In this document: positions 1 through 3,883 of the stretch, one piece after another
Layout of the letters: the number at the start of each line of letters is the position of its first letter
Position numbering within the stretch: the first letter of the stretch is position 1
Virus record (IMG/VR): IMGVR_UViG_2617270980_000005
DNA length: 5,563 bases
Reading direction: 5' to 3' (one strand)
Source of the DNA: a virus
Lineage: Duplodnaviria > Heunggongvirae > Uroviricota > Caudoviricetes
The notes under the pieces: generated by a model
Told to the model about the DNA's origin: nothing
What the model saw: the letters and a program-made list of their open reading frames with translations, nothing else
Database searches by the model: none
Made by a program: the position numbers and the translations under genes

Positions 1-229
1 CCAGCTCTTTCAGACGCTGACGTTCAGCGCTGGTGAGCCCACCATCACCGCCCCCGGTATCCCGCTCATGCTGGCGAACCCAGACACGCAGAGTCTCCGG
101 CGTACAGCCAATCTTTGGGGCAATGGAACAAATTGCCGCCCACTGTGAGTCATATTCATCCTGACTTTCCAGAACCATACGAATCGCCCGCTGACGGACT
201 TCGGGGGAAAAACGAGTATTTTTAGTCAT
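1..229 (-). CDS. IS3-family transposase OrfA, N-terminal 76 codons (partial, runs off window start)
   Basis: ATG at 229-227 on the minus strand, preceded by GAGG (AAAGAGGTAAACAGG ATG); open frame to position 1; HTH-type N-terminus characteristic of IS3-family OrfA. Confidence 0.8.
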
Positions 230-283
230 CCTGTTTACCTCTTTCTCAGGGAGTTTAGTCTCCAGGATTTCCGGGGCGGTTCA
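1..283 (-). mobile_element. IS3-family insertion sequence (IS629/IS1203-like), partial; one terminus at 283, element continues beyond the window start
   Basis: Reverse complement of 231-283 reads TGAACCGCCCCGGAAATCCTGGAGACTAAACTCCCTGAGAAAGAGGTAAACAG, a TGA-initiated terminal inverted repeat typical of IS3-family ends, followed immediately by the orfA start. The encoded protein begins [76 protein letters not shown], which I recognise from memory as IS629/IS1203-type OrfA. Exact IS name not verified. Confidence 0.8.
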
Positions 284-499: not shown

Positions 500-1465
500 T
501 TATCCCCTGAAACCAGGCGGAATTTCGGTATCCGGTTCAGAAATATGATTCACACAACGCTTTATTGGCGAACGCCCCAGGCGAATAACCAGCTCATCCC
601 ATTTTTCGCGAAGCTTTGACGGACTCATGATGTTTTTGACCCAGAATGGATCTCGCTGTACCCGACCAAACATTTCGCAAATTTGTCTGTGGCTTCTGCC
701 ATCCAGCATCCGCATTGTGCGCACGTCATTGGCCCAGGCAGTCCAGTTAGGCTCTTTTGGTCGCATGATCTCGCCATCATCACTGGCGGCCTGTTCGTAG
801 AGACCCACGATCCGCCCCCAGATCCACTGCGCACACGCCAAATCCTCCCTGCTACCCCACTGCCGTTTTTTCGCACTAAACACAACTGCGTCAGGGTGCC
901 GGATTAAAAAATCCTGTTCAGCCGTCTGCTGGTCCGGTTGCAAAGCTTCCGGACGAAAAGTGTTTTTATTCTCTGTAGTAATCTCTGTTGTATTCTCTGT
1001 AGGATCATCGGGCCATTTTGACCCGATGACATTGGGTCGTTTTGAACCAATGGAGCGTTTCATTTTGACCTCTTCCATCATGTCATTTTGACCTGATGGA
1101 GCGACGCATTTTGAACTGATGGATTCGCTCAATTTGCCACCATCTAAAAGATCGCTCCCATAGTTGATCGTGTAGAAATTGGTCATGTCGCGCTTTGATT
1201 TATTGAGCTTTTCGCAACGCAAAAGCCCCAGCGTTTTCAGACTTGCAAACGCGCGCTTTAACGTTGACTCTGACCAGAACGGGAACTGCGCCAGCCATTG
1301 TTCCGTTGTGTTGTAAATCCAGCGAACACCATCACATTCCATGCCGGAATTGGTATCTCTCAACCAGTAATGCAGTTGCTGCAACACAATGGCTTCGTTT
1401 AAGCCAATCTTCATCGCAAGCTGTGTGTTTATAACCAGTGGGCGTTCAGCAAAAAGAAGGCTCAT
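500..1465 (-). CDS. phage replication initiator / replisome organiser (lambda O-like role), 321 aa from ATG 1465; the track ORF extends to an upstream TTG at 1519
   Basis: Long minus-strand ORF in the position lambda O occupies (after cro-like and cII-position genes). It contains in-frame DNA iterons in the interdomain linker (…SIGSKRPNVIGSKWPDDPTENTTEITTENKNT…), a hallmark of O-type initiators whose origin lies inside the gene. Domain family not assigned from memory. Confidence 0.8.
   Translation of the reverse strand: MSLLFAERPLVINTQLAMKIGLNEAIVLQQLHYWLRDTNSGMECDGVRWIYNTTEQWLAQFPFWSESTLKRAFASLKTLGLLRCEKLNKSKRDMTNFYTINYGSDLLDGGKLSESISSKCVAPSGQNDMMEEVKMKRSIGSKRPNVIGSKWPDDPTENTTEITTENKNTFRPEALQPDQQTAEQDFLIRHPDAVVFSAKKRQWGSREDLACAQWIWGRIVGLYEQAASDDGEIMRPKEPNWTAWANDVRTMRMLDGRSHRQICEMFGRVQRDPFWVKNIMSPSKLREKWDELVIRLGRSPIKRCVNHISEPDTEIPPGFRG
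961..1125. repeat. candidate phage replication origin: five ~23-bp iterons (1009-1123) plus an adjacent AT-rich region with a 3x ~12-bp direct repeat (961-1008)
   Basis: Direct repeats with cores CATTTTGACC (1014), CGTTTTGAACC (1038), CATTTTGACC (1061), CATTTTGACC (1084), CATTTTGAAC (1107), spaced 23-24 bp. Several have inverted-repeat arms (ATCGGG..CCCGAT, CATTGG..CCAATG, CCATCA..TGATGG). Flanking 961-1008 is AT-rich with TCTCTGT(A/T)G three times. Confidence 0.65.
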
Positions 1466-1967
1466 AATTCCATCCAGCTTTTTGTTGGTATTGCTGTCGA
1501 TACGCAAGCTTGAAAGCAATTGCTTTTTCTATAAGTTCGTCAGTTTCACGATCTACAACGGCAGGATCTGCAAAAAGCAGTCCGGACTCCACCACATCGC
1601 CATATTCTTTATTTAACCCAGCGATCATGTACGTAATGCTCTTTCCGTCACTAATTTCACGATACAACCTGAAATCACTAATCCGGATAGCCTCCATAAT
1701 TGCAGGCACTAGCGCTGTGAACTTTTCACGCTTATCCCTGGTGTCGATAGCCTTCCAGCGTTCAAATATCTTCACTCGATTAACGCTAAGCGCTCGCTGA
1801 TCAACCGCGCCACCTTCATATGTGACACGCTGAACATCGATGTTCGGGCGCTCTTTCAAAGCCCAGAATGCTTCAGTGATTAATATCGTCGCCTGCTCCT
1901 GTGTCATTCCTGGTCGACATATCCAGGCATCCAGAGCCTCACGAGCCTGTTCAGGAGTGATTTTCAT
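1446..1967 (-). CDS. hypothetical prophage early protein, 173 aa, in the cII position between the cro-like gene and the replication initiator
   Basis: ATG at 1967-1965; overlaps the dicC 3' end by 17 bp and the initiator start by 20 bp (compact operon). Protein MKITPEQAREALDAWICRPGMTQEQATILITEAFWALKERPNIDVQRV… looks globular and charged-balanced. Likely the intact counterpart of the decayed ydfX/ydfW region of K-12 Qin (from memory, unverified). Confidence 0.7.
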   Translation of the reverse strand: MKITPEQAREALDAWICRPGMTQEQATILITEAFWALKERPNIDVQRVTYEGGAVDQRALSVNRVKIFERWKAIDTRDKREKFTALVPAIMEAIRISDFRLYREISDGKSITYMIAGLNKEYGDVVESGLLFADPAVVDRETDELIEKAIAFKLAYRQQYQQKAGWNYEPSFC

Positions 1968-2181
1968 TGTTCAACCGCCCCGCCCGCTTCGTCTTACGAT
2001 ATTCGTCATAAACTTTGGGATCATACTGAAGCTCCCCGCCAGATGCCTCCTGTAGACGCATCGCGCGACCTTCGGGAACTAAATCCCCTTTCCAGCTATA
2101 AAGCGAAGCCAAACGAATACCTGCTGCTTGTGCAAGTTTTGTTTTTGAACCGAAATACAAAAGAGCGTCAGTTTTAAGCAT
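1951..2181 (-). CDS. dicC: DicC, Cro-like HTH regulator of the Qin-type immunity switch (76 aa)
   Basis: ATG at 2181-2179 with AAGG 7-8 nt upstream on the minus strand; protein MLKTDALLYFGSKTKLAQAAGIRLASLYSWKGDLVPEGRAMRLQEASGG… matches remembered DicC; divergent from dicA. Confidence 0.9.
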   Translation of the reverse strand: MLKTDALLYFGSKTKLAQAAGIRLASLYSWKGDLVPEGRAMRLQEASGGELQYDPKVYDEYRKTKRAGRLNNENHS

Positions 2182-2264
2182 TTAAAACACCTTAGATGTT
2201 AGTCATGGCTAACAAAATAGATGTTAACAAAAACATAGTCAATACGATTTAGCATTAGCTAACT
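2182..2264. promoter_or_regulatory. divergent dicC/dicA promoter-operator region with three dyad-symmetric candidate operator sites
   Basis: Dyads TGTTAGtcatggCTAACA (2197-2214), ATGTTaacaaaAACAT (2221-2236), TTAGCattaGCTAA (2249-2262). Candidate PdicC on the minus strand: -35 TTGACT (complement of 2237-2242), 17-bp spacer, -10 TATTTT (complement of 2214-2219). The second dyad sits in the spacer and the first overlaps the -10/+1 region. Confidence 0.6.
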
Positions 2265-2672
2265 ATGGATACAAAAAATTTAACCATCGGCGAACGCATT
2301 AGGTATCGTCGGAAAAACCTCAAACACACCCAAAGGTCTCTTGCTAAAGCCCTGAAAATCTCCCATGTGTCTGTATCACAATGGGAACGGGATGATAGTG
2401 AACCTACAGGGAAGAACCTTTTTGCCCTCAGCAAAGTATTGCAATGCTCACCAACATGGATTCTATTTGGCGATGAAGACAAGCAACCAACACCACCTGT
2501 TGAGAAGCCGGTTGCCTTAGCCCCCAAAGAACTAGAGCTCCTTGAGCTGTTTAATGCACTGCCAGAATCAGAACAGGATACCCAGCTCGCCGAAATGCGA
2601 GCTCGAGTAAAAAATTTCAATAAACTCTTTGAAGAATTACTAAAAGCCCGTCAGCGGACAAATAAAAGATAA
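2265..2672 (+). CDS. dicA: DicA, XRE/CI-family HTH repressor of the dicB operon (135 aa)
   Basis: Protein MDTKNLTIGERIRYRRKNLKHTQRSLAKALKISHVSVSQWERDDSEPTGKNLFALSKVLQCSPTWILFGDEDKQ…KARQRTNKR matches remembered DicA essentially full length; N-terminal HTH; divergent from dicC. Confidence 0.95.
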   Translation: MDTKNLTIGERIRYRRKNLKHTQRSLAKALKISHVSVSQWERDDSEPTGKNLFALSKVLQCSPTWILFGDEDKQPTPPVEKPVALAPKELELLELFNALPESEQDTQLAEMRARVKNFNKLFEELLKARQRTNKR

Positions 2673-2700
2673 CATCATCAATGAGTTATCTTTTATTATA
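2664..2700 (+). terminator. weak candidate intrinsic terminator overlapping the dicA stop
   Basis: Inverted repeat AAAAGATAAC (2664-2673) / GTTATCTTTT (2685-2694) with an 11-nt loop, followed by ATTATAT. The stem is AT-rich, so termination efficiency is doubtful. Confidence 0.3.
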
Positions 2701-2706
2701 TCAATT

Positions 2707-2762
2707 ATGTTAGCCATAACATACAAAATCACTTGACCAATATGTTAGTTATGACTAATCTT
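2707..2762 (+). promoter_or_regulatory. candidate dicB-operon promoter (PdicB) with two operator-like dyads
   Basis: -35 TTGACC (2734-2739), 16-bp spacer, -10 TAATCT (2756-2761). Dyads ATGTTAgccaTAACAT (2707-2722) and TTAGTtatgACTAA (2745-2758) share half-sites with the dicA/dicC intergenic dyads; the second lies between -35 and -10. Confidence 0.55.
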
Positions 2763-2838: not shown

Positions 2839-2994
2839 ATGGATACTATCGATCTTGGCAACAGCGAATCTCTGGTATGTGGCGTGTTCCCCAATCAGGA
2901 CGGCACGTTCACCGCGATGACGTATACCAAAAGCAAAACGTTTAAAACCGAAAATGGTGCCCGTCGCTGGCTGGAAAGAAACTCAGGTGAGTGA
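2839..2994 (+). CDS. ydfA: YdfA-like small protein (51 aa), first gene of the dicB operon
   Basis: ATG 2839 preceded by GAGG (AAATGAGGTCAGC ATG); protein MDTIDLGNSESLVCGVFPNQDGTFTAMTYTKSKTFKTENGARRWLERNSGE matches remembered YdfA length and sequence. The track ORF start at 2761 is an upstream in-frame TTG without RBS. Confidence 0.85.
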   Translation: MDTIDLGNSESLVCGVFPNQDGTFTAMTYTKSKTFKTENGARRWLERNSGE

Positions 2995-2995
2995 T

Positions 2996-3571
2996 ATGGA
3001 TTTCGACACAATCATGGAAAAGGCTTACGAAGAATACTTCGAAGGCCTTGCCGAAGGCGAAGAAGCTCTCAGCTTCAGTGAGTTTAAACAGGCACTCAGA
3101 ATAAGAATGTGCTCTCACAATGACGCGGAGCACAAATATGAGAAGCAAAATCAGACCGCAGAAAATTTTGTTCTGGAACCCGGAGAAACGCTTTTCAAAA
3201 TTCCCGTTACGTGCCCCATTTGCGGTTTTACATCAGAAGAACTTGACGACTCCTGTAACAATCAGGAAACAACCAAGTATGTCGAAGATGATACCGAGTG
3301 CGCACGAAGAACGATTATATCCACGAGTCCAAACTCCAGGACCAATAAATCTCACCTTGAGAGGGTAATTAATCCACTCCCCCAAACCAATAAAAAAGAT
3401 GCCGGAGGACAAAAAACCCAATGGAACAACGGGATATCTGTCAAAAAAAGACGTTCCATTAAAGACAAACAACGCAGCGCCAACAACTGTAAGCGCTTTA
3501 TACCAGTAATCAATTTTCATGTTCTTAAGCGGATTTATTGGTGGTTGCGACATTGCTTAATGAATCCTTAA
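2996..3571 (+). CDS. ydfB: YdfB-like protein, here as an extended 191-codon frame (acidic N-terminal region, CPICG..C motif); 3' extent uncertain
   Basis: ATG 2996 with AGGTGAG Shine-Dalgarno, start coupled to the ydfA stop (TGAtATG). N-terminal ~105 aa look protein-like (MDFDTIMEKAYEEYFEGLAEGEEALSFSEFKQAL…VTCPICGFTSEELDDSC…). The C-terminal half is low-complexity K/N/R/S-rich with rare Arg/Ile codons and is overlapped by an alternative + frame (3138-3368) and a minus-strand ORF (3233-3553), so the true coding end is unresolved. Confidence 0.5.
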   Translation: MDFDTIMEKAYEEYFEGLAEGEEALSFSEFKQALRIRMCSHNDAEHKYEKQNQTAENFVLEPGETLFKIPVTCPICGFTSEELDDSCNNQETTKYVEDDTECARRTIISTSPNSRTNKSHLERVINPLPQTNKKDAGGQKTQWNNGISVKKRRSIKDKQRSANNCKRFIPVINFHVLKRIYWWLRHCLMNP

Positions 3572-3830: not shown

Positions 3831-3883
3831 TTTCTGGTGACGTTTGGCGGTATCAGTTTTACTCCGTGACTGCTCTGCCGCCG
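3831..3883 (+). ncRNA. dicF: DicF small regulatory RNA (about 53 nt)
   Basis: TTTCTGGTGACGTTTGGCGGTATCAGTTTTACTCCGTGACTGCTCTGCCGCCG matches the remembered DicF sequence nearly base for base; located between the ydfB/ydfC region and dicB as in the Qin dicB operon; followed by a T5 run. Confidence 0.9.

Follow-up and report, generated by a model that had tools for sequence, protein, structure and literature searches.

Five dyads in the immunity region of a Qin-type prophage are very probably the operator set of a P22-type switch

Our analysis indicates that five short dyads in a Qin-like prophage very probably form the operator set of a P22-type immunity switch, which would keep dicB silent. 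Three of them (Oc, Om and Oa) lie between the divergent genes dicC and dicA, and two (called Ob1 and Ob2 here) lie at the dicB promoter. The first-pass annotation of this DNA had taken both clusters as operator-type sites, and the literature and our comparative data agree with it. That reading is correct but already known, since operators were named in 1988 and binding to Oc was shown in 2012. The additions made here are modest: the two predicted dicB-promoter operators are placed precisely and with comparative support, all five sites are brought into one 18-bp register, and a candidate amino acid/base specificity pair (Arg24/base 2) is put forward. DicB and DicF block cell division and alter phage susceptibility, and whether a cryptic prophage expresses them is decided by these sites, which are therefore physiologically relevant.

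The window, meaning the whole 5,563-nucleotide stretch of DNA that was analysed, is the immunity region of a Qin-type lambdoid E. coli prophage. Positions 1900-2900 share 100% identity with the chromosome of E. coli strain 600029 and 96.7% with K-12 derivatives, in which the matching region is annotated dicC, dicA and ydfA. It is this identity and annotation, together with the open reading frames (ORFs) and the Pfam matches, that place the dyads in a Qin-type immunity region. The genes and elements surrounding them are as follows.

1449-1967, minus strand: YdaT-like ORF (ORF and Pfam).
1951..2181, minus strand: dicC, Cro-like regulator of 76 aa (Pfam P22_Cro, E = 1.7e-11; annotated dicC).
2265..2672, plus strand: dicA, CI/C2-like repressor of 135 aa (Pfam HTH_3 and Phage_CI_repr; annotated dicA).
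2661..2697, plus strand: perfect inverted repeat of 13 bp, AATAAAAGATAAC / GTTATCTTTTATT, lying across the dicA stop codon (repeat search).
2839..2994, plus strand: ydfA (DUF1391), first gene of the dicB operon, downstream of Ob1 and Ob2 (ORF, Pfam and annotation).
3832-3883: DicF RNA (Rfam match).

In the ORF list, dicB and then ydfD follow the DicF RNA, and the Rfam search of the window returned no RNA family besides DicF. The divergent gap between dicC and dicA measures 83 bp, flanked by the P22_Cro gene and by the CI/C2-like HTH repressor gene. The nearest solved structure to DicA is the N-terminal domain of P22 C2 (E = 8e-20; 1ADR, 2R1J); over the 135 residues of DicA, Pfam gave HTH families only, and the S24 peptidase autocleavage domain was absent. 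The 13-bp inverted repeat is probably the dicA terminator, a role that would separate dicA from the dicB promoter.

Two promoters are relevant to the dyads.

2214..2242, minus strand: PdicC, -35 TTGACT (2242-2237), 17-bp spacer, -10 TATTTT (2219-2214); promoter scan 9/12.
2733..2761, plus strand: putative PdicB (dicBp), -35 TTGACC (2733-2738), 17-bp spacer, -10 TAATCT (2756-2761).

The scanned PdicC agrees with the dicC promoter of PMC3441716, which is supported by 5'RACE and whose -10 is overlapped by Oc. PdicB was not called by the promoter scan of the window because its -10 matches at only 3/6 positions. Its candidate hexamers were placed by conservation and by analogy with P22 PL: the -35 showed no variation in the close population (112 loci, taken from IMG/VR and genomes, whose repressor is of the K-12 type), and a TTGxCx hexamer occupies the same place in all divergent classes. 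Transcription from PdicB is expected to start near 2767-2769. The conserved leader of the dicB operon folded no better than shuffled sequence (z = -0.31). Upstream of the dicA ATG, no Shine-Dalgarno sequence was found; the K-12 dicA mRNA belongs to a group of just five in E. coli whose leader is less than 10 nt (PMC4681348), and the sequence from Oa to the dicA ATG is identical in the window and in K-12. Since the dicA mRNA is leaderless, Oa spans the dicA core promoter, from the -10 to +1.

All five palindromes listed by the first-pass annotation were present as described: TGTTAG-TCATGG-CTAACA at 2197-2214, ATGTT-AACAAA-AACAT at 2221-2236, TTAGC-ATTA-GCTAA at 2249-2262, ATGTTA-GCCA-TAACAT at 2707-2722 and TTAGT-TATG-ACTAA at 2745-2758. 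The spacer lengths of 4 to 6 bp that had been read from them did not hold up, as a single 18-bp frame, TGTTAG-N6-CTAACA, accommodates all five dyads. The spacers appeared to differ because the longest local palindrome had been drawn at each place; the 18-mer units 2222-2239, 2247-2264, 2708-2725 and 2743-2760 are shifted relative to three of those intervals, and a repeat search paired 2196-2218, 2707-2729 and 2742-2764 as direct copies in the same register. Placed in this common frame, the sites read as follows, with matches to the 12 arm bases.

2197..2214: Oc, TGTTAG-TCATGG-CTAACA, 12/12; strong operator, overlapping the start region of PdicC and the edge of its -10.
2222..2239: Om, TGTTAA-CAAAAA-CATAGT, 7/12; proposed weak middle operator, filling the PdicC spacer.
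2247..2264: Oa, ATTTAG-CATTAG-CTAACT, 9/12, with the inner TTAG/CTAA core 8/8; adjoins the dicA ATG.
2708..2725: Ob1, TGTTAG-CCATAA-CATACA, 10/12; candidate operator, ending 7 bp upstream of the PdicB -35.
2743..2760: Ob2, TGTTAG-TTATGA-CTAATC, 10/12; candidate operator, inside the PdicB spacer and -10.

The right arm of Om overlaps the PdicC -35 (AGTCAA). Spacing is 25 bp from Oc to Om, 25 bp from Om to Oa and 35 bp from Ob1 to Ob2.

Short AT-rich dyads are common, and the half-site TGTTAG alone was not enriched in the window (4 vs 2.1 expected), as would be the case if the palindromes were chance products of an AT-rich intergenic region. The complete frame, however, behaved differently. With up to 2 mismatches, TGTTAG-N6-CTAACA was found three times in the window (2197, 2708 and 2743), all within the two regulatory gaps; shuffled windows gave a mean of 0.15, and three sites were reached in 0/200 shuffles. 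Allowing 3 mismatches added Oa at 2247 and two matches in coding sequence, which is chance level. Moreover, the flanks vary and the arms do not, the sequence of the sites changes together with the repressor (both described below), and binding to Oc is published (PMC3441716). The dyads are real and far above chance; these data already refute a chance origin, to which we attach virtually no credence.

The first-pass annotation had also proposed that DicA and DicC might read different subsets of the dyads according to spacer length, N6 serving one protein and N4 the other. Palindromes with a literal 4-bp spacer do exist at 2249-2262, 2707-2722 and 2745-2758, and such a division would accord with the finding that DicA bound Oc and not Om or Oa (PMC3441716). 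Nevertheless, the N6 frame fits all five sites, whereas the N4 pattern ATGTTA-N4-TAACAT was not enriched (5 matches vs 2.5 expected, with at least 5 in 18/200 shuffles). Two of the N4 dyads, TTAGC-N4-GCTAA and TTAGT-N4-ACTAA, are simply the inner portion of TTAG-N6-CTAA. The remaining one, at 2707-2722, was perfect in the type of the window alone: it was degraded in K-12 (5/6) and in strain 07_3986 (3/6) (ATGTTAGCTATAGCAT; ATGTTAGTCATGGCAA) and fell to 2-4/6 in other lineages, while the N6 frame of Ob1 was intact in K-12 and 07_3986 (TGTTAG-N6-CATACA or CAAACA) and its left arm was kept in 19/19 lineages. A variant with two real spacing classes that share a half-site (TGTTAG-N6 and ATGTTA-N4) was likewise rejected on the K-12/07_3986 alignment and the lineage table. 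As the premise of differing spacer lengths fails, the spacer-based assignment to DicA and DicC is left unsupported, and we consider it very unlikely.

Conservation among close relatives pointed to the same frame. Across the 112 close loci, the operator arms and the central AT were invariant, and spacer positions 7, 8, 11 and 12 varied by transitions only, giving a YYATRR centre; the DNA immediately outside Oc and Ob1 was hypervariable. The sites are under purifying selection. The suggestion that the dyads would be conserved in orthologous regions was borne out for the arms of the 18-bp frame, but not for two of the palindromes as originally drawn: ATGTT-N6-AACAT at 2221-2236 was retained in only 4/19 lineages, and the N4 dyad at 2707-2722 decayed as described above. 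In two lineages Ob1 is a perfect TGTTAG-N6-CTAACA. PMC10448788 speaks of 'three operator sequences', which could point to a third operator at dicBp; neither the variability profile of the close loci nor the divergent classes showed a third conserved operator at PdicB.

Published work supports operator function most directly for Oc. The names Oc, Om and Oa go back to Bejar, Bouche and Bouche 1988, as that paper is cited in PMC3441716 and PMC10448788. The K-12 Oc (TTGTTAGTCATAACTAACAA) was cloned by Yun et al. 2012, who found it bound by DicA in vivo. Repression through Oc and activation of dicA both depended on DicA in their work, and a single A-to-C substitution in the right arm of Oc abolished DicA binding and repression (PMC3441716). 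In our full-text literature search, the Oc sequence was found in that paper only. By its account of the 1988 paper, Om and Oa had been 'identified solely by nucleotide sequence', and when each was tested alone, neither was bound by DicA, the data not being shown there (PMC3441716). Ragunathan et al. 2023 drew on the analogy with lambda PR and PL in describing operators at dicCp and dicBp, and reported that dicBp is derepressed 22-fold without dicA, that the system shows DicC-dependent bistability, and that DicA, which is without an Ala-Gly cleavage site, is under the control of the antirepressor Rem (PMC10448788). Overall, the literature has DicA repressing dicC and dicB, and DicC lowering dicA expression. 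Reg-Seq recovered a DicA site at dicC; for dicB, its authors gave the binding location as unknown and the case as low-evidence.

We sought to relate operator sequence to repressor type in more distant relatives. A scan of genome contigs with DicA gave 6 loci, and the diversity was supplied by four scans of viral contigs. The wider sample comprised 298 loci with placeable sites, which fell into 24 lineages by the recognition region of the repressor. Sites were placed by their position relative to the cro -35 and by the inner TTAG/CTAA core only, leaving the outer bases unused. These outer bases differed consistently between lineages whose repressor has Arg at residue 24 and those with Ala or Ser there. 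In Oc they were TG..CA in all 19 Arg24 lineages and CC..G(G/A) in all 5 Ala/Ser lineages. Position 2 of Om was G in 18/19 and C in 4/5, respectively, and its left arm started with TG in 17/19 and with TC in 4/5. Ob1 had TG at positions 1-2 in all 19 Arg24 lineages vs 0/5 of the others, position 2 of Ob2 was G in 16/19 and C in 5/5, and position 17 of Oa was C in 19/19 and T in 5/5. The G-to-C switch at position 2 is common to Oc, Om, Ob1 and Ob2 and is thus concerted across four sites. Spacing was conserved throughout: at the switch both intervals measured 25 bp, the first being 26 bp in the Ala/Ser class, and the interval at PdicB was 33-36 bp. Repressors with an F-K recognition helix had different dyads at the same positions. 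Operator sequence therefore co-varies with repressor specificity among these heteroimmune relatives, although the Ala/Ser class is probably one clade, so that independent co-variation events are few; the Arg24/base-2 co-variation may amount to one evolutionary event, to which the separate F-K classes are added. From this pattern we infer that Arg24 of DicA contacts base pair 2 of the operator.

The co-variation also bears on a host-factor explanation, in which some sites, and especially Om with its TGTTAA half-site, bind a protein such as ArcA. ArcA half-sites are TGTTAA-like, and ArcA sites are direct repeats about 11 bp apart. A 2025 Reg-Seq preprint described an unassigned repressor site at dicCp, with ArcA and YgbI pulled down (PMC12132413), which would suit this explanation. 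Yet the TGTT-type half-sites stand 25 bp apart and are inverted, unlike ArcA sites, and across heteroimmune relatives they change with residues of the phage repressor. Half-sites of a host factor would not follow the phage repressor in this way, and we find this explanation highly improbable.

A more serious competitor limits the true operators to Oc, Ob1 and Ob2 and treats Om and Oa as promoter elements that look like dyads only incidentally. Om would then be the spacer and -35 of PdicC, and Oa the -10 to +1 of the leaderless dicA promoter. Part of the conservation of Om can indeed be explained by the PdicC -35 and spacer, and part of that of Oa by the dicA core promoter and start codon. Om matches at 7/12 positions only, and its right arm is constrained by AGTCAA; the TTAG..CTAA of Oa, with its TAGNAT-like hexamer, is kept across the Arg24 and Ala/Ser classes, as a promoter would be, and the way Oa tracks the adjacent repressor gene could be mere linkage. 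The failure of DicA to bind either site alone in vivo (PMC3441716) agrees with this view. On the other side, cooperative binding is invisible to single-site assays, and position 2 of Om and position 17 of Oa change with the repressor class in the proportions given above. In the Ala/Ser class, moreover, Om (TCGTAG-N6-CTAAGT) lies much closer to that class's own consensus, CCTTAG-N6-CTAAGG. The exact 25-bp spacing and a one-to-one match with P22 OR2 and OR3, which are established operators, also argue against incidental dyads. Taking both sides together, we regard the restriction to three operators as unlikely, and favour a set of five.

The part played by DicC was approached through the Cro types of the same lineages. 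A single operator class was accompanied by many different Cro helices, and an identical Cro HTH (..AAGVRLASVAAWG..) was found with both the TGTTAG and the CCTTAG operator sets. The possibility that Oa tracks the Cro type was rejected, as Oa follows the lineage of the adjacent repressor. A tentative joint reading, which we put forward with low confidence, is that heteroimmune DicA classes arose through a specificity switch in which residue 24 reads base pairs 2/17, the operators being re-tuned together while DicC reads the inner core. Residue 24, at the start of helix 2, may pair Arg with G:C and Ala/Ser with C:G. Reading by the Cro-like DicC would be confined to the inner TTAG/CTAA core, because the identical Cro HTH occurs with both operator sets; Oa, with its perfect core and mismatched left outer arm, would therefore be a site that DicC can fill and DicA alone cannot. 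If true, this would explain the negative result of Yun et al. and make the switch asymmetric. DicA might also mediate looping between the Oc and Ob clusters, which are about 511-546 bp apart.

For the five-operator switch itself, we propose with good confidence that PdicC and PdicB are occluded when DicA dimers bind Oc, Ob1 and Ob2, and that Om and Oa are weak equivalents of OR2 and OR3 that tune the leaderless dicA promoter via cooperativity and/or DicC. A DicA dimer would recognise the 18-bp TGTTAG-N6-CTAACA, preferring a YYATRR centre. Bound at Oc, it would cover the start of PdicC and the edge of its -10, switching dicC off, and, per the literature, would stimulate the leaderless dicA promoter. 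Predicted occupancy by DicA of Ob2, in the PdicB spacer and -10, and of Ob1, upstream of the -35, would keep the ydfA-dicF-dicB operon off. Om and Oa, at 25 and 50 bp from Oc, would most likely act like OR2 and OR3, roles suggested by their positions; they would be filled cooperatively, or at high DicA, and/or by DicC, and dicA would then be turned down.

The closest known system is the dic region of the K-12 Qin prophage, which is the same locus at 96.7% identity over 1 kb, with the gene order dicC, dicA, ydfA, DicF, dicB, ydfD in common. In the two, Om and Oa agree at every base and the operator arms are the same throughout; only non-arm bases differ, namely the spacers of Oc (TCATGG in the window vs TCATAA in K-12), Ob1 (CCATAA vs CTATAG) and Ob2 (TTATGA vs TCATGG) and the 5' flanking base of Oc (A vs T). 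Upstream, the window has an intact YdaT-like gene and replication genes where K-12 has the ydfX/ydfW remnants, and the two also differ downstream of ydfA.

The likeness to lambdoid OR1-3 suggested by the first-pass annotation proved closest for P22, whose immC region has the same layout site for site: OR1-OR2-OR3 between cro and c2, and OL2-OL1 at PL. The sites of the window are positionally homologous to the P22 operators, and both systems use 18-bp dyads. P22 OR1 is ATTAAAGAACACTTAAAT. OR2 (ACTAAAGGAATCTTTAGT) ends in the AGT of the PR -35 AGTCAA and has Om as its positional equivalent, and OR3 (ATTTAAGATGACTTAACT) adjoins the c2 ATG (..CTTAACT ATG) as Oa adjoins that of dicA (..GCTAACT ATG). 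At PL, the P22 -35 TTGACC is identical to that of PdicB and in the same position; OL1 lies in the PL spacer with OL2 35 bp upstream, the distance that also separates Ob1 from Ob2, so that Ob1 is the positional equivalent of OL2, and the transcript starts CATCAGC in P22 PL and would start CATCAAC in the window. The dic dyads share a half-site consensus and length, are regularly spaced and overlap both divergent promoters; a second cluster lies at a PL-like promoter downstream of dicA, with two conserved sites, not three; and the repressor transcript is leaderless, its core promoter being overlapped by the repressor-proximal operator, Oa. P22 has a third PL operator, OL3, whereas only two conserved sites were found at PdicB. 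DicC belongs to the same Cro family as its P22 counterpart (P22_Cro), and the N-terminal domain of DicA is about 59% identical to P22 C2, with DicA Arg24 aligned with C2 Ala22. The half-sites nevertheless differ, TGTTAG in the window vs ATTTAAG in P22, with the G one position further out, as do the OR1-OR2 spacings (23 bp in P22 vs 25 bp in the window), and DicA, at 135 aa, is without the S24 autocleavage domain. The P22 operator consensus ATTTAAG-N4-CTTAAAT is not matched by the dic sites; the architecture is the same and the specificity different.

Lambda is a more distant parallel. Its operators are of unrelated sequence and 17 bp long vs 18 bp in dic, its Cro belongs to a different fold family, and its CI is cleaved with RecA, whereas DicA is not. 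Shared with lambda are the divergently arranged repressor and cro genes, the three operators that overlap both promoters at intervals of about 24 bp, the leaderless repressor mRNA with a repressor-proximal operator over its promoter, the second operator cluster at the leftward early promoter, and bistable behaviour (PMC10448788).

Among otherwise near-identical prophages, the centres of Oc, the operator between dicC and dicA, and of Ob1 and Ob2, the operators at the inferred PdicB promoter (2203-2208, 2714-2719 and 2749-2754, respectively), were found to be polymorphic hot spots at the non-arm positions 7, 8, 11 and 12 of the 18-bp frame. Only transitions occurred at these positions in the three sites, so that a YYATRR centre is retained. 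The pattern of these sequences suggests that operator affinity is tuned via bases that would not be directly contacted.

We compared the DicC-like proteins, referred to as Cro, with the operators that they adjoin. An identical Cro helix-turn-helix, containing AAGVRLASVAAWG, lies next to a TGTTAG-type Oc in one lineage (L314-type loci) and next to a CCTTAG-type Oc in another (L009-type loci), and one operator class is common to many different Cro helices. This mixing points to mosaic recombination within the intergenic region or to a Cro that would ignore the outer operator bases. Repressors with the F-K recognition helix, those of L011 and its relatives (phiES15 type) and those of the SQQ..FKW class, were found with differently arranged dyads at equivalent positions: in the phiES15 type the dyad is CTAAC-N4-GTTAG, with the same pentamers everted, and at other F-K helix loci it is ACTTAA-N6-TTAAGT. 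One related locus, L003 (JAIIUG010000151.1), is a 2.5-kb contig labelled as a Collinsella sp. MAG, which encodes a DicA sharing 99% identity with its E. coli counterpart; it is most likely an E. coli prophage fragment mis-binned as Collinsella.

The immunity genes are accompanied by the following features:
Within 1-230, minus strand: tail of an ORF at the left end of the window, putatively a transposase or other insertion-sequence gene.
235-1519: a 74-aa ORF, then one of 339 aa that resembles a replication protein.
2661-2697: perfect, AT-rich 13-bp inverted repeat spanning the dicA stop codon, with a T-rich tract after it.
2996-3571, plus strand: long ORF downstream of ydfA, starting MDFDTIMEKAYEEYF.
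3233-3553, minus strand: hydrophobic 106-aa ORF, lying within the dicB operon and read in the opposite direction.

The inverted repeat probably serves as the terminator of dicA and so insulates PdicB; it was not called by the scan, because G-C pairs are scarce in its stem. Beyond ydfA, the window departs from the ydfB/ydfC sequence of K-12, and this region may be a moron or an insertion. While the window carries the 74-aa and 339-aa ORFs, K-12 has only ydfW/ydfX remnants there, indicating that the prophage copy in the window has decayed less.

The start of the dicB-operon transcript (2768-2838) is kept even across heteroimmune classes, at the equivalent position in L005, L006, L009, L010 and L011, and the L010 leader contains a boxB-like GCCCGGAAAGACGGGC. 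The leader consists of CATCAA(C/G), a hairpin and GTTCCGC..CCCGGCGTTAAGGGG, in that order. The hairpin stem is ACACCG..CGGTGT in the window, whereas Citrobacter and phiES15 have AATCAC..GTGATT, so that the two arms appear to have changed in a compensatory way. The single-sequence fold of the leader was not significant (z = -0.31), and an Rfam search returned no match for the element. The conserved segment might act as a leader element, nutL-like or of another kind. In P22, CATCAGC opens the transcript from PL, the leftward early promoter, at the position matching CATCAA(C/G) of the dicB-operon leader.
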